Shown here piece by piece: positions 246-27,684 of a stretch of 32,000 bases of DNA. The first letter of the stretch is position 1; each line of letters starts with the position of its first letter. A program made the translations under genes and the position numbers. This DNA is from Candidatus Electrothrix yaqonensis (lineage in GTDB: Bacteria > Desulfobacterota > Desulfobulbia > Desulfobulbales > Desulfobulbaceae): NCBI GenBank assembly GCA_047651235.1, contig CP178758.1, positions 3,210,001 to 3,242,000 of the forward strand. The letters run 5' to 3'. The notes below the pieces were generated by a model. That model searched no databases, was not told the DNA's origin, and saw only the letters and a list, made by a program, of their open reading frames with translations.

Positions 246-1823
246 TCAGCTGTTTTTTTTTTCGCCTTTTTTCGAGGCAGACGGTTTTGTTTTGCGTTCT
301 TCCGGTTCCAAGGTGACCGGCAGGGAAGTTTCTTCTTCCGTTTTTGTTTCGGCCAGCGGTTCAGGGCGGACAGTCACGGTCTTTTTATCAGGAATGGTCA
401 CGGTTGCGTTGACGCTGCTGTATCCTTCTTTATCCGCAGAGACAGTGCAGGTCCCGGTATGCACTTTTAGGCGGAACGGGACATCCGGCGAGGCTATGCC
501 GGAGCTCGATACTTCATCGTTGCAGGCAACAGAGACTATCGTACTGTTCACCGTGGAGAGAATGGCAAGGGGATATGTTGCCTGAACGAGCTGCAGAAAC
601 AGTTCGCTGTCTCCGTTGATTGACACCTCTTTTTCCAGCAGGGCATATCCTTCTTTCTGCGCGGAAATATGGTGGGTGCCTATAGGCAGATTCAGGGTGA
701 GCTGCCGTTTTTCAGCAATATATTCTTTTTCATCCGCAATAACGGTCACATTGTCCGTATTCAATTGGATGGTTAATTCGGGCAGAGGCAGAACAGCCTT
801 CAGGGTGTAATTTCCGGTCAGATGAAAATCCTGTTGAAAAGGAGCGGCTGCCAGCGGGTTGGTGACTTTTACTGTATGGTTTCCTGCCGGTAAAGAGACG
901 GTGACCGGGGTTCCGGCAGTAGTTGTCCCGACCCGGCTGTCGTTGAGCAGGACGGTGCTCTGATCAAGGTTTGCATGGACGGTGAGCAGGCAGTCAGCAG
1001 GCTGCAGGCTGAACGGAAGGACCTGAAAGCTGTCGAGGATGATCTCTTTATCTGCAGGGAGATACCCTGATTTTTCCGCCCGTACGCGGTAGCGCCCGGC
1101 AGGCAGATTGAGGCTGAGGCGGTTACCGGGACTGCGGTATTCCTGTTCTCCTATGGAGATGCTGACATCCTGCACATTGAAGATAAGTTTTAGAACAGCC
1201 GGTTGGTCGCCATCGGAAAGCAGGGAGGGAGAGAGCAGAACGCCTGCGGCACAGGTAATGCACAGAGCGAACAACAGGCAGAAAGATTGAAGCGGAAAGC
1301 GGAAAGTTTTTTGCGGCCTCTCCCTGACATCCTTGACCTCTCTGACAGAGCGGGCAGTTTTTTTTTTCGGCTCAGCCGACCGGCTTTCCAGGCTCTCTAT
1401 TCTGCTGATGCAGTGCAGGTGCTGTTCGGCTGCCGGGCGCAGGCATTCCGGGCAGGAGGCCGGATCAGTCTGCTCAGCATGATCGGTACAGGACTCTGTC
1501 TGATGTCTGCAGGGCGGAAAAACGAGATCTTTTTCCGGAACAAGTCCGTCTTCCGGTGTATCCGGGACAAATTCGAGAAACTCACCCCGTTCCAGATAGA
1601 ATTTTTCCACCAAGGTCGAACAGCTCAGATTTTCCTCCGTATCCGCTGTTATCTCCGTGGTAACTATATATTTATAAGATTCTTTCTGCTCCATATGATG
1701 CGTATGACGATAGAGGGTATCCTGTGCTTTTCCCTCGTTGCATAATGCGTCAAGAACGGGTTGAAGCTGTTCGTCGGGAAAGCTGCTGCCCGGAGCTGAT
1801 TCAGCTGAAAAGAGATTCAACAT
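246..1823 (-). CDS. Membrane-anchored PEGA-domain repeat protein with a Cys-rich cytoplasmic N-terminus, one TM helix and 4-5 PEGA-like repeats
   Basis: 525-aa ORF. Hydrophobic segment FCLLFALCITCAAGVLL. Recurrent PEGA-type motifs: LPAGRYRVRAEKSGY, LPIGTHHISAQKEGY, HTGTCTVSADKEGY, LPAGNHTVKVTNP. Confidence 0.7.
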   Translation of the reverse strand: MLNLFSAESAPGSSFPDEQLQPVLDALCNEGKAQDTLYRHTHHMEQKESYKYIVTTEITADTEENLSCSTLVEKFYLERGEFLEFVPDTPEDGLVPEKDLVFPPCRHQTESCTDHAEQTDPASCPECLRPAAEQHLHCISRIESLESRSAEPKKKTARSVREVKDVRERPQKTFRFPLQSFCLLFALCITCAAGVLLSPSLLSDGDQPAVLKLIFNVQDVSISIGEQEYRSPGNRLSLNLPAGRYRVRAEKSGYLPADKEIILDSFQVLPFSLQPADCLLTVHANLDQSTVLLNDSRVGTTTAGTPVTVSLPAGNHTVKVTNPLAAAPFQQDFHLTGNYTLKAVLPLPELTIQLNTDNVTVIADEKEYIAEKRQLTLNLPIGTHHISAQKEGYALLEKEVSINGDSELFLQLVQATYPLAILSTVNSTIVSVACNDEVSSSGIASPDVPFRLKVHTGTCTVSADKEGYSSVNATVTIPDKKTVTVRPEPLAETKTEEETSLPVTLEPEERKTKPSASKKGEKKNS

Positions 1824-2049
1824 GACGGAAGTCCGACATTCAGTGTTGTGTCGGAGAAGTCAGAGATTTACGGTTGCTGCTGCGATGTCTGCTGTGGACT
1901 TCCAGCCAGTGTACAATGTTTTGATTTTTTCTGAAAGTATTATCAGCCGGATAATCCGAAGCGGAAACAGTCCTGACCAATCCCCCTGCAATCCGCTGCA
2001 GAACCGCCTTGTTCCTTCCCGTATCCTGTCATCACGTCACTATATCCCG

Positions 2050-3054
2050 TCACCATATCCGCCCGCCTGCATAGCCTCCGCCCCTGAGCTGCTCCTGCAC
2101 CATTTTGATTTCCGTATAATCGAGCGGATCAATCCAGCCCGCAATACCGGCCTCCTGCACGGCTCTGTGATCCGGCTGCAGGGATCTGAGCACAGCCGCG
2201 ACCTGATCGGCCAGCTTCTGATCGACAGATGCTGTTCTGGCCAGCGGAAATCCCGGATATAGCTGGAGCAACATAATTTGAATATGCCCACAAGAGGCAT
2301 AAGTTTTGCCTTCACGCCTTTCAGATAGCTGATCCTGTATTCAGTTTATACTGCTCCAGCTATACAGTTCCGTTGAGCAGACATAGGGGAAATCCGAATG
2401 GAATTTCTGTTGCAGAATTTTGAAATCCTCCATTTCTACGGTTCCTGCTGCTGCCATGCGCTCCAGGATACTGGCCGGTACAGTGCCTGCATCAACCCTC
2501 CGCTGCAGGACAGCGCCGACCACAGCCCAGGGCGTATCAAAAAAACGCAGGGTGTGGAGGAAAGGATACGGATCAATCCCGGCATCCCGGAACTCCTTTT
2601 CCGCCATCTGCCAGCCGCCAAAGGACCAGCGCCGCACTGCGCCGAATTTTTTGTTTTCCAGATCGCTCAGGTCATTGACAAGCCGGTTGTCTGCTGCGGT
2701 GAACAGCACGGCACCGATAGAATCGGTCTTAATCAATTTCATGGTCAGCACTTCCACTGCGCCGTGCTGCTCTTTGGCAGTTATGAAGACAGAGGGGTCA
2801 GCGGTAAAAAAATGCACCTTTTCCTGCTCCACGACCGGCAGGACATCCGGGAATTCCAACGGAAGAATGACCACGGGTCTGCCTAATTTTTCCGTAAGAT
2901 ATTCGCCGGTGGCCTCCCAGCGGTGCGTAAAGCCCAACGGCCCGGTCCAGGAGAGAATTCCTATCCGTATTTCTTCGGTTTTCTCCTCTGCAGCCTGACA
3001 GGGCGCAGTAAAGGCGAGCAGCAGAGCAAGTGCTGCCAGAAGTATTCCTTGCAT
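2050..3054 (-). pseudogene. PhnD/SsuA-like periplasmic substrate-binding protein gene, interrupted by a MITE (5' part 2341..3054, 3' part 2050..2257)
   Basis: Signal peptide MQGILLAALALLLAFTAPCQA and a PhnD-like body. ORFs 2341..3054 and 2050..2274 are in the same frame. Removing 105 bp (element plus one TA) joins ...CSTELY to PGFPLARTASVDQKLADQV... without a stop. Confidence 0.75.
2258..2364 (-). mobile_element. MITE copy A: 103-bp element at 2260..2362 flanked by TA/TA
   Basis: It is the exact reverse complement of 23372..23478, 107/107 nt on manual comparison. The 11-bp perfect terminal inverted repeat TAGCTGGAGCA extends imperfectly to about 25 bp. A TA dinucleotide sits on both flanks. 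Confidence 0.85.
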
Positions 3055-3487
3055 ATTTCCTCCTTTTTGTACAGCAAAACATCGACGGAGATACCTTTTG
3101 AATACGTTTTCCGTTTCAGGAGATAAGCAGAACTGCGCCCGGAAAATACGTATTATTAATAATAATTATCGCGCATAAGGCGGTAATGTCAAGGGAAACA
3201 GCAACGAAAAATCTGGTGGCGTAGCATCGCGGCGGGGTACAACGGAATAGGTGATCAGAGAGCTGGGGGGAAGAGCAGGGGGAGAAGGGAAGGTTTGTGT
3301 CTGATTTTTTTCGGATTAATAATGGGCTGCTTTCTGGGGGCTGAGGATTCCGGTTCGGATGCTGCCGTCTGCCTGTCTCCCGCAGATGTCGGCGGATTGA
3401 ACAGTATCTGAACGAAGTTGTGCTTCCCCGTCTTCCTCTTCTGCCCTACAATCAGGCCGCTGCCGACGGGCGCGGAGGAAAAATCCT

Positions 3488-4429
3488 TCAGCATGTGTCC
3501 GTCTCCTCGGCATCATACGGCTCTATATGAACGACAACGTCAAGTACATCTGGCCCCTGCTGAAGGAGGCACTGTTTGACGTCCTCAGAAATTGAATGTC
3601 CTGCGCGGACGGACAACTCCGGGTCCACTAAAATATGCAGATCGACATAGAGACGTGAACCAAATATTCTGGTCCGTATGGCATGGGTATCTTTGACCCC
3701 CTTTACCGTCATGGTCAGGTTCCTGATCTGCTCCTGTGCCCTCAGAGATGCTCCGGCATCACTCAGCTCCTGCAGTGCGGGTACAATAATATCCCACGAT
3801 ACTTTGAGAATAAAGACGGCAATAATTACGGCACCAATCTGATCAACAAATCTCCAGTCCGGATACAGCGCCGCCACCACCACGGCAATCAATGCCGGAA
3901 TGGAACTCAAGGCATCGGAGCGATGATGCCACGCATTGGCCATGACCGCTGTCGATTTCACCAGTTTTCCCACATGAGCTGTCCACTGGTAAAGCGCCTC
4001 CTTAGCAAGGATTGACAGAATTGGGCCGATAACAGCCACCCATCCGATCTCTCCGATATGGTCATCATGGATTGTCAGAACCGAATTATACCCCAAGCCC
4101 ACCGCGACACTCACGAGTGCCAAGCCGATAGCTACAGTGACAAGCGCTTCGATCCGTTGATGGCCATAAGGATGGTCCTTATCCGGGGGAGCTGACCAGA
4201 ACCGGACGCCTAAAATTACGGCAATATCTGTGCTCATGTCAGAAAGGCTATGGACGGCATCTGCGATCACAGCCTGACTGGCTCCTAAAAAACCGACGAG
4301 AAATTTTATGCCTGCTAAACTGACATTGACCGCCATCCCGCCCCATGTGACTTTCCGTATCAGGCCGATCTGCTGAGGCGACATATTCTGTCTACAGGAC
4401 ATCAGCTCCGGCGAGGATAATCCATTCAC
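3488..4429 (-). CDS. Cation diffusion facilitator (CDF) family metal efflux transporter
   Basis: 313-aa ORF with multiple TM helices. CDF signature HSLSDMSTDIAVILG...DKDHPYGHQRIEAL and a C-terminal cytoplasmic domain. The GTG start overlaps the upstream stop (GTGA); an internal ATG start is also possible. Confidence 0.85.
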   Translation of the reverse strand: MNGLSSPELMSCRQNMSPQQIGLIRKVTWGGMAVNVSLAGIKFLVGFLGASQAVIADAVHSLSDMSTDIAVILGVRFWSAPPDKDHPYGHQRIEALVTVAIGLALVSVAVGLGYNSVLTIHDDHIGEIGWVAVIGPILSILAKEALYQWTAHVGKLVKSTAVMANAWHHRSDALSSIPALIAVVVAALYPDWRFVDQIGAVIIAVFILKVSWDIIVPALQELSDAGASLRAQEQIRNLTMTVKGVKDTHAIRTRIFGSRLYVDLHILVDPELSVRAGHSISEDVKQCLLQQGPDVLDVVVHIEPYDAEETDTC

Positions 4430-5436
4430 ATTAACCCCGATAAAAAATTATTTACGCATTGCCCAAGAACATCGACATTATATCCGCCTTCCTGGCACAC
4501 CAATGTCGGGACACCCAGGGCCTTAAACTGCTGACCTATAGAAATATAGTCCTCTGTATTAATTGTAAATCCGCCAATAGGATCGTCTCTATGGGTATCA
4601 AACCCAGCGGAAATAATTAAAAAGGAAGGGTTAAATTCCTTTATTTTGCTGATTATTCTGTCAACAGCCCCGCTATATTGTTCTATTTCTGTCTCCTTGG
4701 GCAACGGTTCATTATGATTGCTACCAACAGCCTGACCTTTTCCTTTTTCGTCATCATATCCCCAAAAATAGGGGTATTCATTGGTAGGATCGCAATGAAT
4801 TGAAGCAGTAAAAACCGATTTAACTTCATCAAAAAATTCTTGCGTTCCATTACCGTGATGATAATCGATATCTACAATAGCAACTCTCCCTTCCGGCAAT
4901 AAATACTCCGCAGCAACAGCTGCATTATTGAAATAACAATACCCGCCAAAGACACGGGGCCCGGCATGATGTCCTGAAGGTCGACACAAGGCATAGACTA
5001 TTTTTTCCTGCCCAGTGCGGAGTAATTCTGCACCTGTCAGCGCGGTTTCAGCAGAAGCACGGGCCACCTCGTATGTCTTTATTTTTATGGGCGTCACGGC
5101 ATCTGTACACCATATACCGCCCCAAAGCGGCGAATCCACTTTTCTCCTGAGATTTGCGTTCTCCCCAGGAAAAAGGTCAGGATAAAATTCTTCATCATCA
5201 TCTTTTAATCCTGAAGCTGTATTCAGAATATAATCGTGGTACGGATGCAACCGTGCAATAAAGCGTTCGGGAAATTGTTGTGCCGTTATAAAATCAAAGC
5301 GGTCGTTAGAACGAAGGGCTTTTTTAATAGCTTCAACACGAAGAGGGGTATCCTTAACTTCATATGTTTCCGGCCCAAGCTGATACTTCCAATACGGATT
5401 ATGCAGACTGTCGTTATACTTTTCTATGACTTTCAT
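4426..5436 (-). CDS. Histone deacetylase-family (acetylpolyamine/acetoin-type) amidohydrolase
   Basis: Motifs RPSGHHA, VDIDYHHGNGTQEFF, SAGFDTHRDDP and QEGGYN. The RBS GGGGAG lies in the tail of the upstream gene. Confidence 0.9.
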   Translation of the reverse strand: MKVIEKYNDSLHNPYWKYQLGPETYEVKDTPLRVEAIKKALRSNDRFDFITAQQFPERFIARLHPYHDYILNTASGLKDDDEEFYPDLFPGENANLRRKVDSPLWGGIWCTDAVTPIKIKTYEVARASAETALTGAELLRTGQEKIVYALCRPSGHHAGPRVFGGYCYFNNAAVAAEYLLPEGRVAIVDIDYHHGNGTQEFFDEVKSVFTASIHCDPTNEYPYFWGYDDEKGKGQAVGSNHNEPLPKETEIEQYSGAVDRIISKIKEFNPSFLIISAGFDTHRDDPIGGFTINTEDYISIGQQFKALGVPTLVCQEGGYNVDVLGQCVNNFLSGLM

Positions 5437-10634: not shown

Positions 10635-12254
10635 TTACCGACTTGGAAGAACGAGCCGGAAGCCAAGTCCTTGAAAGTGATCGTTTGGTTCGATCCCGTA
10701 CCGATCGGCGGCACGGCAACCATCACGAAAATTGAACCATGACCCGCTACGGGCAACCCGGCCACGGCCCGATGCAGGGCCAGTCGGATTATTATGTGGG
10801 CTGAACTTATAGTAATTGGAACTGTACCAATCAGCACACCATTCCCAAGCATTTCCGCTCATATCATACAGGCCGAAAGCGTTTTTCTTTTTCTGACCGA
10901 CCGGATGGGTTTTATTACCGCTATTTCCATCATACCAAGCTAATTCATTTATTCTGTCTCCACCGCAATACTTTCCAGAACCACCTGCTCGGCAAGCATA
11001 CTCCCATTCCGCTTCAGTGGGCAGGCGATATCTTTTGCCAGTTTCTCTGTTCAGCTCGGAAATGAATTCCTGTACATCTTCCCAAGATACGTTTCCAACA
11101 GGACACCTACCACTCGCTTTAAAGTTCGACGGATTATGAGTCATAATTTTCTTCCACTCCCTCTGGGTGACTTCATATTTCCCCATCCAGAATCCGTCTA
11201 CACAAACCTCATGCACCGGTCCTTCATCCTCCTTACGGTCTTTTTCATCCGGTGGGGAGCCCATTTGAAAACAGCCCTTGGGAATATAGACAAACTCCAT
11301 ACCGGTAATAGTGTCGGTCATGGTATCTCCCCGTTTCGGTGGGGATGGGGGGACAGGTTCCGGTTCTTCTTGCGGGTAAGTTTGTGCAGTATCTCCCCGT
11401 GGGGTAAAATTGCTTCCTGTAGACTTTTTCGTGCGCATACTGACAGGATTTCCACCCTGCATTTTTTGGGGCACCAGCAAGAAATCACCCCAATTATGAT
11501 TGGTCATCTTGATAACTCCGTACAAAGGTGTCTGCAGGGCATTGGCAATGACAGGATTTTTGATCCGGTCGAAGAGGCTGTCACCGTCCAGAACTTCCTG
11601 GTTGTGCCTCAGCACCCTAAGGAACGCTTGAGCAAAAACCGAATGCCCGCCTCCGCCGGAATCCAGAACCGGTTCTTCGCCCCCAGCAGTCAAGGCATTA
11701 CGAGACCGACGCGCCAGCATCCTCTGGATCCACTCATCTCGACTCATACCAGAAGCGAGTCTTACCTTTGGATTACGCATCAGCAGATTGCCGGAATAGC
11801 AGGAGTCCGCCACGACCAATACGTGTTTCGCCCGAATTACCCTGAGCAGACTGGTCACCCTGGAGGTTGGAATCCAGTCAACATCGTTGTCCCGTTCCGC
11901 ATCCACGGGCTGCCAGTAGCCGACACCGCTCAGGCGATCAAGATAGCCGTGTCCGGCATAGTAGATGAGCAGGTTGTCCTGTTCACTGGTCATTGTGCTA
12001 CGCAGTTTGGAAATAGCCCGCATGATCTGCTCTCTGTTGCCGTCCAGCAGCAGATCAACCTCAAAGCCGTACCATTTTTTCAGCACTTTGGCCACCGCCT
12101 TTGCATCCGCTCTGGGTGTCTTTAGCGGCTTGAGATATTTGTAGTTCTGGTTACCGATCACCAAGGCATGAAAACGCCCATAGGGAGATGCAGCCTGCAC
12201 CGGAGCAGCGGCAGACAGAAAAAACAGCAGGAAGAACAGCGGATTTCTGAGCAT
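10635..12254 (-). CDS. Secreted caspase-like (peptidase C14) / formylglycine-generating-enzyme-type sulfatase-modifying (FGE/SUMF1) domain fusion protein
   Basis: Signal peptide MLRNPLFFLLFFLSAAAPVQA. Caspase dyad motifs LLIYYAGHGY (His codon 11949-11951) and VVADSCYSG (Cys codon 11799-11801). FGE-domain motifs in the C-terminal half: YRLPTEAEWEYACRAG, GLYDMSGNAWEWC, RVARSGSW, GFRLV. Confidence 0.85.
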   Translation of the reverse strand: MLRNPLFFLLFFLSAAAPVQAASPYGRFHALVIGNQNYKYLKPLKTPRADAKAVAKVLKKWYGFEVDLLLDGNREQIMRAISKLRSTMTSEQDNLLIYYAGHGYLDRLSGVGYWQPVDAERDNDVDWIPTSRVTSLLRVIRAKHVLVVADSCYSGNLLMRNPKVRLASGMSRDEWIQRMLARRSRNALTAGGEEPVLDSGGGGHSVFAQAFLRVLRHNQEVLDGDSLFDRIKNPVIANALQTPLYGVIKMTNHNWGDFLLVPQKMQGGNPVSMRTKKSTGSNFTPRGDTAQTYPQEEPEPVPPSPPKRGDTMTDTITGMEFVYIPKGCFQMGSPPDEKDRKEDEGPVHEVCVDGFWMGKYEVTQREWKKIMTHNPSNFKASGRCPVGNVSWEDVQEFISELNRETGKRYRLPTEAEWEYACRAGGSGKYCGGDRINELAWYDGNSGNKTHPVGQKKKNAFGLYDMSGNAWEWCADWYSSNYYKFSPHNNPTGPASGRGRVARSGSWFNFRDGCRAADRYGIEPNDHFQGLGFRLVLPSR

Positions 12255-12256
12255 GT

Positions 12257-12916
12257 TTACTCTCTCGCCCTCTCAGTCTCTTTCCGCAGGTTATCCAGCT
12301 CGGCACGAAATTCTGCCGCATCTTGCGTATCTCCATTTGCTTCCAGCAGTTCAGCCAACAGGGCACGATGCGCTGCTTTGTCAATCTCCGGTCCGTACAA
12401 ATAGGCCAATCGCGCCATAGCCAGGGCCTCGCCGATGCGGTTCTGCCGCTGAAAAATGCGGGCAATGCTGCTCAGGGAAGCAGCGGAGTCAGAGAGTGTT
12501 ATACCCGGTTGCTTCAATTCCTCCCATTTTTGGTCAAGATCAGATACCGGTGCAGCACCAGAATTAATTTCCGGATCTCTGTACAGCTCTTCTTTTCGGT
12601 ATGTGGATTCGTCGCCGTTTTGAGTCCTCGTCTCAACGAGTTCTTTTTGGAGCAGTTGCGGTTCACCGCGCCAAAGCATAACCCCGATCAGCACGGTGCC
12701 GAACAGGGCAAAATAGGTGCCGGGCAAAAAATTGGTTACACGTAGCCTGAATCCTCCGGCCTGAACACCGGCAGAAGATGTGTTTTCCGCAGAACTGGTT
12801 GCCCTGAGAGGAGTGCTGAACAGGCGGAAACCAAGATAGATGGACAGCGCACCGATGGCAAGCACGGTCAGGCGGTACACGGCGGCATAAAGCAGAAAGC
12901 CGGTCGAAAGGGTCAT
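12257..12916 (-). CDS. Two-TM membrane protein with a helical (TPR-like) C-terminal domain
   Basis: The start is trimmed to the ATG at 12916, preceded by GGAGG at a 5-nt spacing. Two hydrophobic helices, then an acidic helical tail. The stop lies 2 nt from the caspase/FGE start, so the two are probably co-transcribed. Confidence 0.55.
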   Translation of the reverse strand: MTLSTGFLLYAAVYRLTVLAIGALSIYLGFRLFSTPLRATSSAENTSSAGVQAGGFRLRVTNFLPGTYFALFGTVLIGVMLWRGEPQLLQKELVETRTQNGDESTYRKEELYRDPEINSGAAPVSDLDQKWEELKQPGITLSDSAASLSSIARIFQRQNRIGEALAMARLAYLYGPEIDKAAHRALLAELLEANGDTQDAAEFRAELDNLRKETERARE

Positions 12917-13026
12917 GAAACCTCCAGCGTCTCTGGTGTTCTGAGGAAAGAAAAAGATACCGGAAGTGTACAAGAAAGAGCCGGTTTCCGCAAGGACGGG
13001 GCCGGGTCAGTTTGACTGAAGAAATG

Positions 13027-14297: not shown

Positions 14298-14782
14298 CAT
14301 TCCTCCCTTATTTTTCTTTACAGCCTGCCCTGCGTACTGAAACGGATGATTCTTTACGTTTATACCTCCTGCAAAAAGAACATTATGATTGTATAGTAGG
14401 TTATAAACCTGACTTTGTCAATCAACTTGGGCAGACGGAACAAACCGGGGAAGAGGCAGGGTGCACAGACAGATTAACGATAAAAAACAATATGATAAAT
14501 TAACAAGAAAAAGTATACCATAACCAGATTTTCAGTGTACGGAACACGGTGCGATTCCGTGGCACTCCCGGTGCTGTAACCCCTGTTGTTCTATCCTTCG
14601 GCATGTACAGGCCACTGTTCCTTGACCAGGAACGGGAAGGCCGCTGCAAGGGAGGGGAAGCCAGAAGACGAACTGAACATCTCTGTATTGCGGAGCGCGA
14701 TGGCAAAGGGTTCCGGAGAGCAATTGCTCTGCCGGGCCCTTTCTGTTTCGGCAGGGCAAAAGGAACCAGAGGAGGTTCATGC

Positions 14783-16244
14783 ATGAAAACGCAACTTGAA
14801 GCAGCCCGTGCAGGCGTCATGACCGAACAGATCAGAACCGTTGCCCGCAACGAAGGCTTGGACCTAGTGCTCAGTCATAGCTAAATTTTAGGATTGATAT
14901 CTCCAAATAAGATACGAATATTAAACGAGTGCGATATGTTCAACCCTAAATTTTAGGCTTTACAAAGCACTAGAGCTTGTGCAGCGCCGGGTGGCAGCCG
15001 GGGAAATCGTTATTCTCAGCCATCCGCAACGACCAAACCAACAGGCAGTGGGGATCGGGACTGGTCTGCGCACCAAGGTGAATGCCTCCATCGGCACCTC
15101 ATCCGATATCTGCGACCCGGATATGGAGGTGCGCAAGGCAAAAATCGCCGAACAGGAAGGGGCTGACACCCTGATGGAACTCTCTGCAGCCGGGAACCTG
15201 AATACAGTCCGTCAAGCTGTCCTGGCTGCGGTCAATCTGCCGGTGGGTACTGTGCCGCTGTATCAGGCCTTCCGGGAAACAGCCCTGCAGCACGCTGATC
15301 CAGGCAGACTGGACCCTGAATACCTGTTTGACCTGATTGAGCAGCAGCTGGCCGATGGTGTCAGCTTTATGGCCATCCACTGCGGCATCAATCAATACAC
15401 AATTGAGCGCCTGCGGAAACAGGGTTACCGTTACGGCGGACTGGTGTCCAAGGGCGGCACCTTCATGGTGGCCTGGATGGACAGCAACGGTAAAGAGAAT
15501 CCTCTGTATGAGCAGTTTGACCGGGTCTGCGGTCTGATGAAAAAATACGATGCTGTCCTTTCTCTGGGCAACGGCATCCGGGCAGGGGCCATCCACGACA
15601 GCCATGACCGCGCTCAGATGGCTGAAATGGTCATCAACTGTGAACTGGCCGAGCTGGGGCGGGAAATGGGCTGCCAGATGATGGTGGAAGGACCGGGACA
15701 TGTTCCCTTGGACGAAATTGCCGCAAATATTCTGCTGGAAAAAAGAATGAGCGGCAATGCCCCGTATTACGTACTCGGTCCGCTCCCGCTGGACAGCGGC
15801 GCCGGATACGATCATATCACCGCAGCTATCGGCGCAGCAAATTCTTCCCGATACGGGGCAGACTTGGTCTGTTACATCACTCCGGCCGAGCATCTTGCCC
15901 TGCCTGATGAGGAGGATGTGCGCCAAGGTGTCCGGGCTGCCCGCCTGGCGGTCCGCATCGGTGACATTGCCAAATACCCTGATCGCCGGGAAAACGAAAA
16001 AGCTGCGGCTAAGGCCAGACGCGATATGCGCTGGGGTGATCTGGAGCAGCACCTCCTGTTTCCTGATATCGCTGATGCGATGCGCCGGGAAAGAATTCCT
16101 GAACACAAGGAGACCTGCACCATGTGCGGAGACTTCTGCGCCATGAAGCAGGGAGCTGCAGTCTTTGGCAAGGATATTGCCGGAGATAAATGCACGGAAG
16201 ATACGGAAAGCGGCAGCAAGCCGTGCGCAGGAGCATTTTCGTAA
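14783..16244 (+). pseudogene. thiC: Phosphomethylpyrimidine synthase ThiC (short anaerobe-type), interrupted by a 106-bp insertion
   Basis: AGGAGG RBS at 14770-14775 and ATG at 14783. The N-terminal reading MKTQLEAARAGVMTEQIRTVARNEGLD runs into a stop at 14882. The body (ORF 14979..16244) is ThiC-like and carries the C-terminal CTMCGDFC cluster motif. Deleting 106 bp (14864 to 14969) restores one 451-aa frame reading ...NEGLDLELVQRRVAAGEIV... Confidence 0.85.
14864..14969. mobile_element. MITE-like insertion inside thiC, including one copy of the duplicated CTAG (or TA)
   Basis: Termini CTAGTGCT...AGCACTAG. The subterminal motif CTAAATTTTAGG occurs near both ends. The core is AT-rich. CTAG is present at 14864-14867 and at 14970-14973. 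Confidence 0.7.
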
Positions 16245-21296: not shown

Positions 21297-21782
21297 ATGG
21301 AAGAATTGAAAATTTTTGTTGAACTGCCGCAGGAAGTGGAAAAATGGCTGATTCAGAACGAGACCAGTTTGGCGCGGCTGCTGCGGCAGCAGGGTGTGGA
21401 GGTGCGGGAAAGCCAAGATGTGAATCCCTTCCGGCAGGAGGACGGCAATGCGACTGAACGGGATATGAAACTGGTTCTTACCGTGACCAGTGCTGCCGTT
21501 GTGATTGTTGCTCTTGGTGTTGTAGCTGACAATATCCTCAAGACAATGAATAAAAAGCCGGTGTTCAGTATTGTCCGACGAGAGCGGGTCGTGCGTGATG
21601 CAAAGGGCGAAGTGGTGTTCGGCAAAGATGGCGAAGCAATCCGTGAATTTGAAGAAATTCCGTTGCTGCTGGAGCCAAGGGCGCAGGATTCAACAATGGG
21701 TGTTCAGTTGCAACTAAACGATCCGAAAACGGGCGACAAGTTTTTGCTGCGTATCGGCTCTTCCCATCAGGAGATAAAGTAA
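21297..21782 (+). CDS. Small single-pass membrane protein, first gene of the caspase-STAND operon
   Basis: 161-aa ORF with a strong RBS AGGAGGG. One TM helix, LVLTVTSAAVVIVALGVVADNIL. The stop lies 3 nt before the next start. Confidence 0.6.
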   Translation: MEELKIFVELPQEVEKWLIQNETSLARLLRQQGVEVRESQDVNPFRQEDGNATERDMKLVLTVTSAAVVIVALGVVADNILKTMNKKPVFSIVRRERVVRDAKGEVVFGKDGEAIREFEEIPLLLEPRAQDSTMGVQLQLNDPKTGDKFLLRIGSSHQEIK

Positions 21783-21785
21783 GCT

Positions 21786-23390
21786 ATGGCGTTTCGGGCC
21801 TTTGTTGTTGGGGCAAATTATGTTGATCTGAAATACGCTGAAAAAGATGCGCAGCGTATTGCCGATAGACTGCATGAACTTGCTTACGTACTTCCCGAAC
21901 CTCGGGTTCCTCCGCTTGGAGAGGATAAGAAAGCTATCCGTGAACGATTCGAAAAAGTTGCTTTTGACTGTAACCCGGAAGATACGCTGCTGTTTTATTT
22001 TGCCGGACATGGGCTGATTCACGAAGGTATACTTTGTTTGGTGCTTGATGGTTATGATCCATCTGCCAATCCGCTTCAGACCTGCTTGAACTTCAACGAT
22101 ATCAGCACAATCTTTCAAGGTGTTAGAGCAGCAGCTAAATTGGTTGTTCTTGACTGCTGCCATGCCGGAAAATCCTTTTCCCGTGTTGATTTCAATTTTT
22201 CCGATAACTATACAGTCCTTACTGCTTCAGAGTCTTTTAAAAAAGCGTTAGAGCTTAAAGACCACAAAGCCGGTTTCCTCAGCCACCACCTGCATAACGC
22301 CTTGACCGATGATCTGGAACAGGTTTCCCGTAACAGGCATGTCCTGCTGGGAAAGGTGCATCGTTATCTGAGGGAGAAGGTTCAAGAGCATAACCGCACC
22401 GCAGAACCATCTGACCGGGTTCCTGAAATCACCGATCTCTCAAAGCAGACAAAAGAAATCGTTCTGGCAGAGATCCCGGAAGATATGTCGCTGAAACCAA
22501 TCTACGGTCTTCAGCGCATCAACCATGCCTTTCTTGCTGCTCAAAAGGATAAAACCGGCCCGGAGTTCATCCCGGCAAATTTTTACGGAGCCATTCCAAA
22601 TGTGCAATGGTGGGGCGTTACCAATGATCTTGTATCTGAACAGAGCCTTTATCCTGCTGTGGAGGAGCATGTTCGGCAGGCGGTTAACGGCTATTTCCCG
22701 CTGATCGGAATTATTTACGGCAGCGGCGGCATGGGCAAGTCCATTCTTCTGCGCCGTCTTGGGGTGGCCTTGGCGGAGGAGTTTGATGTCTGGTGGCTGG
22801 AAGACACGGAGGAACTGCTCAAAGACAGAAAGGCTGCCGAGGAAAAGCTGCTGGAGTCCGGCAGGCCGCAGATTGTTCTCCTGGATGACTGGACAGCCTT
22901 GGAAGAGGATGCCCGTAAGGAATTGCGGACTTGGTTCAACCAGCTCAACAAGAGCGGCGACAGCAAGCAGCTCAAATTTGTTCTTACTGGTCGCAGTTGG
23001 AGCAACAGAGACTTATCAAAAAAGCTCATTTCTTCCGGTGGGCTGTTCGAGATGGACAAACAAAGTAATCTTGGTCAGGATAATCCTCTGCTTCTGGACA
23101 AAGCTGCCGAGGTTTTAAATGATCCTGAATGGCATGCCGCCGCCCAAGAGCTGCGTTCCACCAATCTAGCGCAGACCAAACCTTTTCATCTTCTCTTCGT
23201 CTTCATGCGGCTGGCACCGGAGAGCCTGCGGGAAAAGATCGCCAAAGGACAAGATGTAGCCTATATTTTTTCGGAGATCATTGAAAGCGATCTGGAAAGA
23301 CTGTGGCAGGATGAACACAGAAAAGGGCTGGCCGCCGCAGTCAGCACGATGGCATGGCTACACGTACAGTTTATAGCTGGAGCAGTATAA
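21786..23390 (+). CDS. N-terminal part of the split caspase-like / P-loop STAND NTPase / repeat protein
   Basis: Caspase dyad motifs LLFYFAGHG (His codon 22008-22010) and VVLDCCHAG (Cys codon 22158-22160). Walker A GSGGMGKS (22719-22742). Walker B IVLLDDW (22872-22892). The last 5 codons and the stop come from the MITE. Confidence 0.85.
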   Translation: MAFRAFVVGANYVDLKYAEKDAQRIADRLHELAYVLPEPRVPPLGEDKKAIRERFEKVAFDCNPEDTLLFYFAGHGLIHEGILCLVLDGYDPSANPLQTCLNFNDISTIFQGVRAAAKLVVLDCCHAGKSFSRVDFNFSDNYTVLTASESFKKALELKDHKAGFLSHHLHNALTDDLEQVSRNRHVLLGKVHRYLREKVQEHNRTAEPSDRVPEITDLSKQTKEIVLAEIPEDMSLKPIYGLQRINHAFLAAQKDKTGPEFIPANFYGAIPNVQWWGVTNDLVSEQSLYPAVEEHVRQAVNGYFPLIGIIYGSGGMGKSILLRRLGVALAEEFDVWWLEDTEELLKDRKAAEEKLLESGRPQIVLLDDWTALEEDARKELRTWFNQLNKSGDSKQLKFVLTGRSWSNRDLSKKLISSGGLFEMDKQSNLGQDNPLLLDKAAEVLNDPEWHAAAQELRSTNLAQTKPFHLLFVFMRLAPESLREKIAKGQDVAYIFSEIIESDLERLWQDEHRKGLAAAVSTMAWLHVQFIAGAV

Positions 23391-23478
23391 ACTGAATACA
23401 GGATCAGCTATCTGAAAGGCGTGAAGGCAAAACTTATGCCTCTTGTGGGCATATTCAAATTATGTTGCTCCAGCTATA
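23372..23478 (+). mobile_element. MITE copy B: 103-bp element at 23374..23476 flanked by TA/TA
   Basis: Identical to the reverse complement of 2258..2364. Removing 105 bp gives the continuous reading ...AWLHVQF-SPYFYFTKNALRN... Confidence 0.85.
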
Positions 23479-25889
23479 GTCCGTATTTTTATTTCACCAA
23501 AAATGCCCTGCGAAACCTAGTAGCCTACCGCAATCCGGACTATCCACTTCCACCATCCACAGATTGGGGAATTCCGCTGAAATATTATTTGTATGCCTAC
23601 CAAAATCCGACAAACAAGCGGGAGGATGCGGAAGAATATGTTGCCTTCATTAAAGACGACTTTGCTAAAAAGTTGTCTGAGGCGGACAGTTTCAGAGATT
23701 CCCCTTATGCGGAAAACTTCTGGCTGACTGATGCGGAGTTCATTATTCGGAAAGCGGATGTGTATTCCTCATCCATGCTGCTATACAGCATCTGCCAAAA
23801 GATGCTCAGTGAAGATCTCCCGAAAGACTGGACAGAGACGCAGATGAAGGCGATGATTCTTGCCCAACTTGAGCGGGACAACGGCCATCATGCCTATGCC
23901 TGGCTACTGCTGCAAGATGGCATCTTTACCGATGAAGCGGAACGCTGGGAGCTGATTGAGCTATATCTTGCCCTTGCGCCGAAGAATGTTCGGTTTGTAG
24001 TGCCGTTTTTGAAATGGGGAAAGAAGGCTGCGCTGAAACGGACTCGGTCTGTTGCCAAGAGTCTGCTGGAGGTGGAGGGGCAAGTTGCGGATGTCATCTG
24101 CACTGCTCTGAATTTTCTGGACAGAGACGAAGCCAAGCTGTTTGCCAAAGAGCTGCTGGATAAGGATGGGCAGGTTGCGGATGTCATCTGCGTAGCTCTG
24201 AATCTTCTGGACAGAGACGAAGCCAAGCTGTTTGCCAAAGAGCTGCTGGACGTGGAGGGGCAACATCCGTTTGTCATCTGCACTGCTCTGAATCTTTTGG
24301 ATCGTGAAGAAGCCAAGTCCTTTGCCAGAAAACTGTTGCTGGAGGAAAAAAGGCAGGAGCATCAAATTATCTGCACCGTGCTGAATCTGAATCTTTTGGA
24401 TCGTGAAGAAGCCAAGCCTTTTGCCAAAGAGCTGCTGGATAAGGATGGGCAGGTTGCGGATGTCATCTGCGTAGCTCTGAATCTTCTGGACAGAGACGAA
24501 GCCAAGCTGTTTGCCAAAGAGCTGCTGGACGTGGAGGGGCAACATCCGTTTGTCATCTGCACTGCTCTGAATCTTCTGGACAGAGACGAAGCCAAGCTGT
24601 TTGCCAAAGAGCTGCTGGAGGTGGAGGGGCAAGTTGCGGATGTCATCTGCACAGCTCTGAAGCTTTTGGACAGAGATGAAGCCAAAACTTTTGCCAGAAA
24701 GCTGCTGGACGTGGAGGGGCAACATCCGTTTGTCATCTGCACTGCTCTGAATATCCTGAACAAGGAGGAAGCCAGCCCCTTCGCCAGAAAACTATTGCTG
24801 GAGGAAAAAAGGCAGGAGCAGGAAATCATTTGCACCGTGCTGAATCTGAATCTTTTGGATCGTGAAGAAGCCAAGCCTTTTGCCAAAGAGCTGCTGGACG
24901 TGGAGGGGCAACATCCGTTTGTCATCTGCACTGCTCTGAATATCCTGAACAAGGAGGAAGCCAGCCCCTTTGCCAGAAAACTATTGCTGGAGGAAAAAAG
25001 GCAGGAGCAGGAAATCATTTGCACTGTACTGAATCTGAATCTTCTGGATAGTGAAGAAGCCAAACCTTTTGCCAGAAAACTGCTGGAGGTGGAGGGGCAA
25101 GTTGCGGATGTCATCTGCACAGCTCTGAAGCTTTTGGACAGAGACAAAGCCAAGCCTTTTGCCAGAAAGCTGTTGCTGGAGGAAAAAAGGCAGGAGCAGG
25201 AAATCATTTGCACCGTGCTGAATCTGAATCTTCTGGACCAAGAAGAAGCCAAGCCCTTTGCTTGGAAGCTGATTAAGGAGCCGAACCAGACGATGCAATT
25301 ACGCTGCGCCGCATTGCATGTTCTCGGCAAAGAAGCAGCGGATTACGCTGCACGGGTTCTGGACAACTGGAAAAAGGAGCCGTTCAATGTTGTGCTGCGC
25401 AGTCTCAACATTCTGCCGAAGGACAAAAAGACAGCAGAAATTATCACCTCATTGCTGAAACGCAAGAGGAAAACACATGAATACTTCAGGGTACTCGCTT
25501 TCCCCTTTCCTGCCGTTGCAGCATGGCAGCAGGAGGTTGAGAATATCGTCCGCAATTGGAAGTATAAGAATCGCAGAGCAGTTGCATCCGTGCTACCGCA
25601 TTATTTTGAGGATCCATATTTCCTGAAACAACCCTGTTTTGAAATTCTTGGCTGGTGGAAGCGCGATATAGAATACCAACGCAGAAAATTCCCTCAAAGT
25701 ATCTGCACAGATCATATCCTCATCGCCCTCGGCCATCCCCATCTCCGCGCCCCGGCAGGCCGAGTTGCCGCCGGAATGCTGCTGGATGAAAAAGAGCATC
25801 CCGGCTTTCTCGGCGAAAAGCTGCTTCAGGCCGCAGAGGACATTGTCAATGACGGCATATATCCTGATTGGGAAAACGAAGAAAACTGA
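23421..25889 (+). CDS. C-terminal part of the split caspase-STAND protein: helical linker plus tandem 30/33-aa repeats. Native coding resumes at 23477; the first 19 codons come from the MITE.
   Basis: It is in the same frame as 21786..23390. The GTG (23421) and ATG (23436) starts lie inside the MITE. There are 13 near-identical repeats and at least 2 degenerate ones. Confidence 0.8.
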   Translation: MKAKLMPLVGIFKLCCSSYSPYFYFTKNALRNLVAYRNPDYPLPPSTDWGIPLKYYLYAYQNPTNKREDAEEYVAFIKDDFAKKLSEADSFRDSPYAENFWLTDAEFIIRKADVYSSSMLLYSICQKMLSEDLPKDWTETQMKAMILAQLERDNGHHAYAWLLLQDGIFTDEAERWELIELYLALAPKNVRFVVPFLKWGKKAALKRTRSVAKSLLEVEGQVADVICTALNFLDRDEAKLFAKELLDKDGQVADVICVALNLLDRDEAKLFAKELLDVEGQHPFVICTALNLLDREEAKSFARKLLLEEKRQEHQIICTVLNLNLLDREEAKPFAKELLDKDGQVADVICVALNLLDRDEAKLFAKELLDVEGQHPFVICTALNLLDRDEAKLFAKELLEVEGQVADVICTALKLLDRDEAKTFARKLLDVEGQHPFVICTALNILNKEEASPFARKLLLEEKRQEQEIICTVLNLNLLDREEAKPFAKELLDVEGQHPFVICTALNILNKEEASPFARKLLLEEKRQEQEIICTVLNLNLLDSEEAKPFARKLLEVEGQVADVICTALKLLDRDKAKPFARKLLLEEKRQEQEIICTVLNLNLLDQEEAKPFAWKLIKEPNQTMQLRCAALHVLGKEAADYAARVLDNWKKEPFNVVLRSLNILPKDKKTAEIITSLLKRKRKTHEYFRVLAFPFPAVAAWQQEVENIVRNWKYKNRRAVASVLPHYFEDPYFLKQPCFEILGWWKRDIEYQRRKFPQSICTDHILIALGHPHLRAPAGRVAAGMLLDEKEHPGFLGEKLLQAAEDIVNDGIYPDWENEEN
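24054..25259 (+). repeat. In-frame tandem repeat array of 13 units (nine of 90 bp, four of 99 bp)
   Basis: Unit consensus: A(K/R)(E/K)LL-x8-(V/I)IC(T/V)(A/V)LN(LN)LLDR(D/E)EAK(L/P)F. A 156-bp block at 24141-24296 is identical to 24420-24575. The block at about 24708-24860 recurs at about 24897-25050 with a few SNPs. Confidence 0.9.
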
Positions 25890-26052
25890 GGCGGCAACAG
25901 TATTGCGGTCCTGCAGAGACGGCTCAATGTACAGACCCCGCAGGGTTTCCGGATCATGATCTCCTCCTTATGCTGTACCCGCCGGAATAAAAATGAGTCT
26001 TTTCTTTCCGGCGTTAAAACGCCGGTCTATTCTTGGGACTGATTGAGAATGA

Positions 26053-26379
26053 TCACCGCCCCTTCTCGCCAAAGGCACAGGCGGTGCCAGCAAGAGCGAA
26101 CAGAAACAGGCACGGCGCAAGTACCTTTCTTCTGCCGAAGCGGTCGGCCAGTATTCCCAGAACAGGCGTCAGGATGACACCGGGAACTGTAAAAACAGTG
26201 AGCAGCAGGCCGATATCCTTGGGGGATAGAGCCAGTTCCGCCACAATAGAGGGAAAGGCCGGGGTGATACTGGCAACTCCAAGGACCCCCATCAGAGTAA
26301 CAGCAAAGATAATCTGCAAATTTCTGTCCTGCCAGAGTTTTTCTCCGCCGGACGGCTGCGTTTCCTGCTCTGATTTCAT
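26053..26379 (-). pseudogene. 3'-truncated MFS transporter gene; only the first 3 TM helices remain
   Basis: 108-aa ORF with MFS motif A (GILADRFGRRKVL). It ends after TM3, and only about 160 bp separate it from the convergent STAND gene. Confidence 0.6.
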
Positions 26380-26597
26380 GGCGCTTTTTGCTCCGCAGCG
26401 TCTTGTCGTTCTCTACCTTCTGCAGAAGAATACTGTTTTTCTTTGTCCCGCAAAACATGATGCGGTCAGCCATCGTAGAGGCGGGGGCCGGTTTTGTCAA
26501 GCAAAAGCACGGAGGGCAGGTAAAAGTGTGAGATTCAGAACGGTTGTGCTTTTTTGCTGTCTGCGGCAATGAGAAGAAGGATCGTGAATCGTGAAAT

Positions 26598-26634
26598 GAA
26601 AAAAGAAAACCGGCTTCCAGCAGGAAACCGGTTT
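26598..26634 (-). terminator. Rho-independent terminator of the alpha/beta-hydrolase gene
   Basis: On the minus strand: AAACCGG, 14-nt loop, CCGGTTT, followed by TCTTTTTTC, about 60 nt after the stop at 26695. Confidence 0.6.
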
Positions 26635-26694
26635 GTTCAGCGCAATACAGCAGCTGGAATGTATTTCTGTCTGTCAGCTCGCTAATGCAGGAAA

Positions 26695-27684
26695 TCAGTG
26701 AAACAGCCATGCCCCCCATGCATTCCACGCTGTGTATGGGATATAATCGATCAGGGTCAGCAGCTTCGCCACTGCATTCGGCTTGGAAATAGCGACGTAA
26801 TGACTGCCGGAAATGGTGTACATATTCCAGCCCATCTCCTCAGCCCGATCCCCGAAATGCGAGAACGCCTCAAATGAAAACCAGTCATCCGTAGCGTGAA
26901 CATAGTATTTCTTCACCTCATCATTCCAGTTGAAGGTGAGCGGCTGGTCAAGGGTATGGATCGGCTGGCAATGCTGCCGTGCATCAAGCCAGGCTATCTC
27001 TTCCGGGTCGGTCAGGCCAAAGGCCGCAGCTGGCAGATTGGGAAAGCACCAGAGATTCTCGGATGGAATCGGAAACCCGGCTGCTTCATGAAGTACGGCA
27101 TAATACGTCTCCAGATCTGGAAAATCCCCTGGGGACGGCATTCCTATAGCACTGAAAAAGCTCTGCGGAGGAAATGCATCTGGCTCAGTCTTATCTTCAG
27201 CAAGAGGAACAGCGGCATCGAAAAAGACCATCTTGTCAATCCGCTCCCACGGTTTTTTATATGTCGCCGGTTCCTCTCTCGGTTCTAATAACCCGCCGGT
27301 CTCCACGTCCTGCAGTGCAGCACACACCATACCGGCATAGCTGTGGCAGACCATGACTGCGTCTGTGATATTGTCTATTTCAAGGACATCAGCAACATAC
27401 TGCACGTGCGCAGCCAGATCAATCGATTCACTTGCCTGAGCGTTATTTCTGCCCAGACCGGGCAAGGTCAGCGTCACGACCCGATATCCTCTTTCTCTCA
27501 GTTTCTCGGCAACGCCTTTATCCGCATCCGGTCCGTCCCACACGGCTTGGTCACCGAAAGCACCATGCACCAGCACAAAAGTTTTCTTGTCTGATTCCGC
27601 AGAGACGTCTGTGACCGGCGTCAAAATAAAGGCGGCAGCCAGTGCCAACACGGTGATTGTTCCGAGAATTCTTCTTTTCTGCAT
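26695..27684 (-). CDS. Secreted alpha/beta-fold hydrolase
   Basis: Signal peptide MQKRRILGTITVLALAAAFILTPVTDVSA. The oxyanion region VLVHGAFG and the nucleophile elbow CHSYAG. Confidence 0.8.
   Translation of the reverse strand: MQKRRILGTITVLALAAAFILTPVTDVSAESDKKTFVLVHGAFGDQAVWDGPDADKGVAEKLRERGYRVVTLTLPGLGRNNAQASESIDLAAHVQYVADVLEIDNITDAVMVCHSYAGMVCAALQDVETGGLLEPREEPATYKKPWERIDKMVFFDAAVPLAEDKTEPDAFPPQSFFSAIGMPSPGDFPDLETYYAVLHEAAGFPIPSENLWCFPNLPAAAFGLTDPEEIAWLDARQHCQPIHTLDQPLTFNWNDEVKKYYVHATDDWFSFEAFSHFGDRAEEMGWNMYTISGSHYVAISKPNAVAKLLTLIDYIPYTAWNAWGAWLFH

Follow-up and report, generated by a model that had tools for sequence, protein, structure and literature searches.

Two kinds of described system lie closest to the locus reported here. 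The first comprises the repeats of high internal conservation (HIC) in NOD-like receptors (NLRs), such as the WD40 repeats of HET-E/D/R and their TPR, ANK and HEAT counterparts, which form the C-terminal superstructure of effector-NTPase-repeat proteins (Paoletti 2007; PMC4986451; 10.1101/2020.01.06.895854) and are recognised by more than 85% identity over at least 100 amino acids (aa) in total (Dyrka 2014, PMC4986451). The second is the EACC1-caspase two-gene system, in which a protein with a single transmembrane (TM) segment is encoded 5' of a caspase fusion and which is enriched in multicellular bacteria (Kaur et al. 2020, PMC7159879). In EACC1-KrAvs12, a caspase-Avs12 fusion cleaves EACC1 at Asp49 to give a pore-forming fragment (Evans et al. 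2025 preprint, PMC12642450). Cable bacteria contain dead 'ghost' cells that have no explanation as yet, as well as genes for caspase-domain proteins whose role is unknown (PMC12163305). We analysed 32,000 nucleotides (nt) from Candidatus Electrothrix yaqonensis (assembly GCA_047651235.1, contig CP178758.1, positions 3,210,001 to 3,242,000; hereafter the window), the genome of the cable bacterium Ca. Electrothrix sp. YB6. A tandem repeat array in this window is, with a probability of roughly 0.7, the C-terminal α-solenoid and probable ligand sensor of an NLR-like signal transduction ATPase with numerous domains (STAND protein), which carries caspase and nSTAND5 domains and belongs to a two-gene module. 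Its kind is already known, in the internally conserved, position-variable NLR repeats of fungi and some bacteria, and the EACC1-caspase pair is the nearest system. Particular to the YB6 locus are HEAT-like repeats missed by Pfam, three old unit types, and a recent split of the gene by a mobile element.

The features of the locus, in window positions, are as follows.

21297-21782, plus strand: partner gene for a 161-aa single-TM protein, 3 nt upstream of ORF1
21786-23390, plus strand: open reading frame 1 (ORF1), 534 aa, caspase-like protease and nSTAND5 P-loop NTPase, the N-terminal part of the split gene
23374-23476, no strand assigned: 103-bp element resembling a miniature inverted-repeat transposable element (MITE), with 11-bp perfect terminal inverted repeats (TAGCTGGAGCA) and TA on either flank
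23421-25889, plus strand: ORF2, 822 aa, helical arm, repeat array and C-terminal cap, the C-terminal (putative sensor) part, in the same frame as ORF1
24069-25274, plus strand: repeat array, 13 units of 30 or 33 aa in a codon-aligned register
about 25275-25460, plus strand: two degenerate terminal units, with a weak hidden Markov model match at aa 621-647; helical hairpins go on through them in the AlphaFold2 (AF2) model

ORF1 matched Peptidase_C14 (E=1e-9) and PF25199 nSTAND_NTPase5 (35.7 bits, above the cut-off of 34). Its best NCBIfam match was NF047832, 'caspase, EACC1-associated type' (1.1e-24), over profile positions 17-210 of 211. The motifs FAGHG (72-76), LDCCHAG (122-128), Walker A GSGGMGKS (312-319) and Walker B VLLDDW (364-369) were found, and the catalytic His/Cys dyad is intact, as are both Walker motifs. 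Each of the homologues P0002-P0008, which come from Electronema, other cable bacteria, a Desulfobacteraceae metagenome-assembled genome (MAG) and a Methylococcales MAG, spans ORF1 and ORF2 in a single protein (1000-1157 aa). Effector, NTPase and repeats lie in one polypeptide in these proteins, and in YB6 only after an insertion of 105 bp is removed (1332 aa). The NLR-like sensor context suggested by an earlier note on this DNA (the original prediction) is thereby borne out, with caspase and nSTAND5 domains and a C-terminal repeat domain.

The AF2 model of ORF2 (mean predicted local distance difference test score, pLDDT, of 82.8) is an all-α solenoid with two helices per unit. According to DSSP, helix A reads x-x-V-I-C-T-A-L-N-L-L and helix B reads E-E-A-K-x-F-A-K-x-L-L. 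A Foldseek search with this model returned generic HEAT/TPR solenoids only, with template modelling scores of 0.36 or less. Profile matches of ORF2 to ParD, bioW and Cas12f in Pfam, NCBIfam and PADLOC were discarded as spurious, low-complexity hits, and a sequence search of the Protein Data Bank for solved relatives of the repeats gave Protein-A tag sequences only.

We searched exhaustively for the repeat family and obtained 193 clusters at E<1e-3, of which 114 remained at E<1e-10. The repeat match is C-terminal in most long family proteins, and the N-terminal parts found elsewhere are trypsin-nSTAND5, SIR2-nSTAND5, TIR-NB-ARC and nSTAND5 with an unassigned domain; in addition, a PNP_UDP gene lies beside an nSTAND5 gene. 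Because the same repeats sit behind various immune-type effectors, the module appears from these sequences to be a sensor domain exchanged among NLR-like proteins. The search defines a repeat family, unannotated in profile libraries, that forms the sensor end of STAND proteins with caspase, trypsin, SIR2 or TIR domains. Two side observations concern its members. P0006 (575 aa, Ca. Electronema sp. PJ) has the caspase joined straight to four or five repeats and the cap, with no NTPase between them, and looks like a natural deletion variant. P0006 and P0032, a homologue of the partner gene, may share a contig, since the longest contig for both is 28,912 nt.

The repeats were compared with HEAT repeats of the PBS-lyase/HEAT_2 type. 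Both have units of about 30 aa, made of two antiparallel helices that stack into a solenoid, and the Foldseek matches include HEAT proteins. The V-x-x-x-A-L-x-x-L-G ... A-x-x-x-L-L pattern of the units is one that we take to resemble PBS-lyase/HEAT_2 repeats. However, the units here have a shorter turn between helices A and B, a longer B-A loop and a conserved Cys (or Ser) in helix A. No curated profile (HEAT, HEAT_2 or HEAT_PBS) places ORF2 among the HEAT proteins, and the sole HEAT-type profile match in the family is a sub-threshold one to HEAT_2, in P0048 (23.6 bits vs 27.7).

The array itself contains 13 copies of the anchor [VI]IC[TV][AV]L across 24093-25301, and their count and codon-aligned register confirm the 13 units in three types that had been predicted. 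Along the array the types run A A B C A B A B C B C A C. Type A (n=5) has the patch GQVAD and type B (n=4) the patch GQHPF, and type C (n=4, 33 aa) reads LEEKRQE(H/Q)(Q/E) with one additional L and an NL insert. Tandem Repeats Finder (TRF) scores reach 1503 in the array, far above chance. Mean pairwise identity over the 13 units is 64% at the aa level and 74% at the nt level; by type it is 84% aa within types vs 56% aa between them, and 12 of the 13 units have a partner at least 85% identical. The units had been called near-identical, which is true within types or for particular pairs but not of the array as a whole. Unit positions I10, C11, L14, L17, A22, F25, A26 and L29 are invariant. The most variable positions are 2, 3, 6-8, 24 and 27, and position 28 is moderately variable (1.00 bit).

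The degenerate units predicted behind the array are present, two in number. A unit of the form ...EAxDYAxxVLxNWxxxPF... also closes the arrays of P0002, P0006 and P0007, so that the C-terminal capping units are orthologous. Long antisense ORFs lie over the array on the minus strand (23961-24725 and 24362-25330, 254 and 322 aa); they probably result from the periodicity and scarcity of stops in the repeats and are not genes.

Among the 46 family proteins with at least three regularly spaced units, the YB6 array is the longest, and many of these proteins contain identical units. Within-protein entropy at the three residues before the anchor [VI][IL]C (-3/-2/-1) was 1.0/1.63/1.58 bits, compared to 0.14-0.97 elsewhere, and these residues form the N-cap and first turn of helix A (DSSP on the AF2 model). 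Some homologues have DNA-identical scaffolds alongside divergent patches. In the seven units of P0047, the proportions of synonymous (pS) and nonsynonymous (pN) differences are 0.017 and 0 in the scaffold, as opposed to a patch pN of 0.225 and pS of 0.264. The patch of P0073 is suggestive, with a pN of 0.159 and a pS of 0 over few sites. A conserved scaffold with one variable patch, as originally proposed, is therefore a family-wide property, seen more sharply in homologues than in YB6. The narrower claim, that units differ at one patch, describes the family-wide focus on the patch core but not the YB6 array, in which positions 19, 24 and 27 outside the patch vary too.

From DSSP and the hydrophobic pattern, the variable positions are predicted to lie on an exposed stripe made of the end of helix B, the B-A loop and the start of helix A, which is one edge of the hairpin. 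The invariant positions would form the helix-helix core, and equivalent positions of successive units would stack along one ridge of the solenoid. The patch may thus be a ligand-binding surface. Alternatively, the solenoid could be merely structural or oligomerising, and the patch differences could be tolerated drift in an exposed loop or helix cap. The ratio pN/pS of 0.87 in the YB6 patch, which is below 1, would fit such drift, as would the resemblance of residues -3 to -1 (D/N/S/H, P/H/K, Q/E/D) to helix N-capping motifs and the stability of arrays between orthologues at 85% identity. However, several homologues homogenise the scaffold to near DNA identity and still have three deeply different patch codons, and drift alone is unlikely because homogenisation of the scaffold would erase it. 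Moreover, the module always forms the C-terminal domain behind an effector and an NTPase, where characterised STANDs have their sensor (PMC13581612). We consider a purely structural role unlikely and favour a sensor surface. Variation focused on three residues per unit would make the family a tractable system for the study of how bacterial NLR-like sensors change specificity.

A more specific form of sensing, which we regard as improbable, is code-like recognition, in which each unit would show a variant of 2-3 residues at the N-terminus of helix A and the unit order would spell the specificity for an extended ligand. Such a ligand may be a peptide or a nucleic acid, by analogy with TALE, PUF and designed armadillo repeats, and block duplication together with patch-sized conversion tracts may rewrite the unit order. 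The recurring patch variants are HPF, (D/N/E)HQ, (D/S)KE, xYQ and VAD; counted by protein, HQ occurs in 18, KE in 14, YQ in 10 and PF in 9. The HPF triplet was seen 15 times, where 1.0 was expected, and identical triplets recur in independent proteins with differing scaffolds and effectors. Compatible with a code, too, are the scaffolds homogenised to DNA identity around deeply divergent patch codons, and units 4 and 9, whose four differences fall within 10 nt at the patch. Shared ancestry of the unit types and helix-capping constraints explain these data more simply than a code. The likeness to TALE repeats is one of resemblance only: near-identical two-helix units of about 30-34 aa, two or three adjacent variable residues at a helix N-terminus, a limited alphabet of recurring variants (HQ, KE, PF, YQ) and, in some members, scaffolds homogenised at the DNA level. 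In contrast to TALE repeats, to which they have no sequence similarity, the units here have the variable site before helix A instead of between the helices and occur in a STAND sensor context, not in a secreted effector; nucleic-acid binding has no support here.

Within the YB6 array, two sets of multi-unit duplications were found.

24141-24296, plus strand: 156-bp exact tract, copy 1, from the end of unit 1 through unit 2 and halfway into unit 3
24420-24575, plus strand: 156-bp exact tract, copy 2, from the end of unit 4 through unit 5 and halfway into unit 6
24708-25085, plus strand: tandem B+C two-unit block, units 8-9 (24708-24896) and units 10-11 (24897-25085), 189 bp each

The 156-bp identity at an offset of 279 bp is reproduced exactly as first reported. 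Identity falls sharply on either side of the tract, and because the flanking sequence has diverged, the tract looks conversion-like. The block recurring at a 189-bp offset with a few substitutions is likewise real: its copies are 95.2% identical, and eight of the nine mismatches fall inside 24836-24890. TRF reports a 189-bp period with 4.2 copies. Other similar pairs are units 7/12 (94%) and units 4/9 (96%). Units 4 and 9 (99 nt each) differ at four nucleotides only, all in 24362-24371 at the patch; two of the changes are nonsynonymous (EHQ to EQE), and the other two, which are adjacent, are synonymous. This pattern is suggestive of gene conversion over a very short tract at the patch, or of a multi-nucleotide change.

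Mis-assembly or short-read polishing could in principle have produced the unit number or the exact identical tracts. The YB6 genome was closed as a single circular contig from 34 Gb of filtered Oxford Nanopore Technologies (ONT) R10.4.1 reads and polished by Racon and Pilon, the latter with 150-bp Illumina reads (PMC12093952). Reads of that length are not uniquely placeable in a repeat with a 279-bp offset, so that Pilon could homogenise the copies; the similarity of the two 156-bp copies may be inflated in this way, and their exact identity could partly be a polishing effect. Yet the 1.2-kb array is much shorter than typical ONT reads, the open frame is kept across all 13 units, the units bear distinguishing substitutions, and like arrays occur in homologues from independent assemblies. 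An artefactual array is accordingly very improbable, and the collapse or expansion of which the original prediction had warned is unlikely in a closed ONT and Illumina genome with an intact frame and unit-specific substitutions.

Taking the array as real, we compared the ages of its types and copies. Between types, pS is about 0.45-0.47 in patch and scaffold alike; within types, the scaffold pS is 0.27. P0002, an orthologue at 56% identity, carries both the HPF and the EHQ triplet, alternating as in YB6 and encoded by almost the same codons. Cyanobacterial relatives also have HPF, and the related triplet NPF is seen in relatives from Methylococcales and cyanobacteria. Because HPF and EHQ are present with nearly the same codons in the orthologue and in distant members, the three unit types are judged to be old and to predate the species. 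The patch codons are identical among all YB6 units of a given type, so the array was built by copying a few founder units. On these comparisons, the array has grown from a small set of old unit types that were copied in blocks by unequal recombination, slippage or gene conversion, and the recent copying or conversion events appear to be few, namely the 156-bp tract, the 189-bp block and the pairs 7/12 and 4/9. Recent recombination or conversion had been proposed for the array; this holds for the few multi-unit blocks (156 bp and 189 bp) but not for the types, whose between-type pS marks them as old.

The original prediction had also likened the array to hypervariable NLR sensors and suggested a codon-level test. 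In the YB6 array, pN/pS is 0.87 for the patch and 0.33 for the scaffold in a crude test that ignores recombination. The patch is therefore read as being under weaker constraint than the scaffold, with no sign of positive selection. P0003 and P0004, which are 85% identical, keep the same five units, at odds with NLR-style hypervariability. The scope of the comparison is one YB6 genome, whose nearest ORF2 relative is 56% identical. As a side observation, P0003 and P0004 are, by eye, roughly 60% identical in the caspase domain (residues 1-240) and about 95% or more identical in the NTPase, arm and array; it appears that the N-terminal effector domain was exchanged rather than the sensor.

Compared with HIC NLR repeats, the YB6 array shares the C-terminal, superstructure-forming position in an effector-NTPase-repeat protein, units more alike than ordinary repeats, a unit number that varies among distant orthologues (5 to 13), duplicated or converted blocks, variation at few positions and a multicellular or filamentous host. 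It differs in its HEAT-like unit of 28-34 aa, which Pfam models do not detect, in having three old unit types instead of many fast-changing variants, and in the identical arrays of close orthologues. Measured against HIC identity, 12 of the 13 YB6 units have a partner at 85% or above, but the array mean is 64% aa and the within-type mean 84%. P0047 clearly reaches it, with a mean of 83% and several identical units. Positive selection on a few positions per unit, as in HIC repeats, was not found in the YB6 array (patch pN/pS 0.87).

The original prediction had overlooked that the gene is split. An in-frame TAA at 23388-23390, inside the 103-bp MITE-like element, ends ORF1. All seven aligned homologues lack 37 residues that YB6 has between ...HVQF and ...LS(R/K)KAL. 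The element plus one TA amounts to 105 bp, so the frame is kept, and excision in silico gives one continuous ORF with the junction ...HVQF|SPYFYF..., compared to HVKF|RPYLS in homologues. Programmed read-through or recoding of the TAA was rejected, since the stop sits in an insertion missing from all homologues. These alignments indicate that the gene was recently split between NTPase and sensor by the MITE-like element.

The terminal inverted repeats of the element can be extended to 34 nt at 79%, and it folds into a strong hairpin (z = -6). A second copy is present in the window.

2260-2362, no strand assigned: second copy of the MITE-like element, in the opposite orientation, inside a phosphonate-binding-protein gene

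The two copies, within 21 kb of each other, are 100% identical, and each lies within an ORF with TA on both flanks. Removal of the second copy with its TA lengthens ORF 2341-3054 (minus strand) from 237 to about 299 aa. The element has the hallmarks of a MITE: it is short and non-coding, with terminal inverted repeats, a TA on both flanks as target-site duplication, and two identical copies. Searches by exact 41-mer and by terminal-repeat pattern found no further copies in GTDB representative genomes or JGI metagenomes; three palindromes that they returned were unrelated and due to chance. This suggests that the element is young, lineage-specific and actively breaking YB6 genes. The split is an example of a costly gene being switched off, and it flags a young mobile element in YB6.

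The split raises an alternative, to which we give slightly less than even odds: the MITE may have inactivated the caspase-STAND system, so that the array would be an inert relic and its recent duplications functionally irrelevant. Consistent with this, the in-frame TAA in the 105-bp insertion parts protease and NTPase from the sensor, the identical element truncates a second gene too, and a fragment of a major facilitator superfamily (MFS) transporter gene lies nearby. A family member at another locus, L006, is likewise split, by an in-frame TGA. That locus (1480-4689 of a 6.1-Mb contig) holds a PNP_UDP gene, an nSTAND5 ORF and the repeat ORF P0047; its NTPase and repeat ORFs are in one frame, parted by a single TGA at 2923-2925 with no insertion, and the interruption may reflect a pseudogene, an error in sequencing or a split that is tolerated. 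Against a dead gene, the insertion must be very recent because the two MITE copies are 100% identical, and over the other 4 kb there is no further stop or frameshift, the alignment to homologues extending to the final residues. The element also supplies GAAGG 8 nt ahead of an in-frame ATG at 23436, from which separate translation of the sensor half is conceivable. In any case, the split leaves unchanged what the array was built for.

The gene upstream of ORF1 links the locus to the EACC1-caspase pairs. A homologue of 158-162 aa lies directly 5' of the caspase-STAND gene in five of five loci (L001, L002, L008, L009 and the window). The two genes are separated by 2-8 nt in L001, L008, L009 and the window, and overlap by 4 nt in L002. 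Identity to the window protein is 67% in L001, 50% in L008 and 29% in L009, and the pair moves as a unit, because the neighbouring genes differ between loci. A word-indexed search for relatives of the partner gave hits chiefly in cable bacteria, all of them free of Pfam domains. In its AF2 model, an α+β N-terminal domain is followed by a disordered, low-confidence linker (46-57) with a nearly invariant E48-D49, a helix (66-84) rich in small residues, and β hairpins.

This layout fits the published description of EACC1, by description only and with no profile match. Shared with EACC1 systems are a gene for a small single-TM protein just 5' of a caspase-STAND-sensor gene, a caspase closest to the EACC1-associated NCBIfam type, and the order of an α+β N-terminal domain, a linker with a nearly invariant Asp49, a small-residue TM helix and a β-rich tail. 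On the other hand, the partner has 161 aa, compared to the approximately 115 aa implied by the EACC1 fragment sizes (PMC12642450), the NTPase here is nSTAND5, the caspase scores under the curated cut-off, and the partner has no profile match. By analogy, the partner is a candidate protease-activated membrane effector. In the mechanism that characterised Avs/EACC1-caspase systems would suggest, a trigger would bind the solenoid, the NTPase would then oligomerise and activate the caspase domains, these would cut the small membrane protein, or some other substrate, and the infected filament cell would die. Cable bacteria are obligately multicellular filaments, and the locus, with its membrane protein and caspase-STAND sensor, is a concrete candidate for a cell-suicide or immunity module.

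Several observations weigh against this sensor reading. The NF047832 score of ORF1, 87 bits, is below the curated cut-off of 140. No Pfam repeat family (HEAT, ARM or TPR) matches ORF2 at E<0.1. The surface exposure of the patch is deduced from secondary structure and the hydrophobic pattern only. Positive selection at the YB6 patch is not supported, with a pN/pS below 1 and old unit types, and the orthologues P0003 and P0004, 85% identical overall, have an identical five-unit array, so that arrays are not hypervariable on that timescale. The AF2 model of the partner is weak (pLDDT 64), and the partner, at most a putative EACC1, was unmatched by Pfam (12 family members, E<=10) and NCBIfam (E<=0.1). 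Finally, the interruption of the gene makes its present-day function doubtful, and the system is probably impaired or inactive now.

An Rfam search of the caspase-STAND locus gave no match. Downstream of the locus, 26027-26728 holds only the MFS transporter fragment (26053-26379, minus strand), which covers 81 of the 347 positions of its profile and lies amid ORFs that overlap on the two strands; it is probably a decayed gene. Three further features lie elsewhere in the window.

10635-12254, minus strand: second caspase gene, encoding a caspase with an FGE-sulfatase-type C-terminal domain and a sub-threshold match to 'EACC1-associated caspase'
12257-12973, minus strand: unannotated 238-aa ORF directly upstream of the second caspase gene, unrelated in sequence to the 161-aa partner
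14516-14691, plus strand: cobalamin riboswitch (Rfam RF00174, 73 bits), upstream of a ThiC/BzaB-like gene (14979-16244)

The first two of these, spanning 10635-12973 on the minus strand, may form a second two-gene conflict module in the window.

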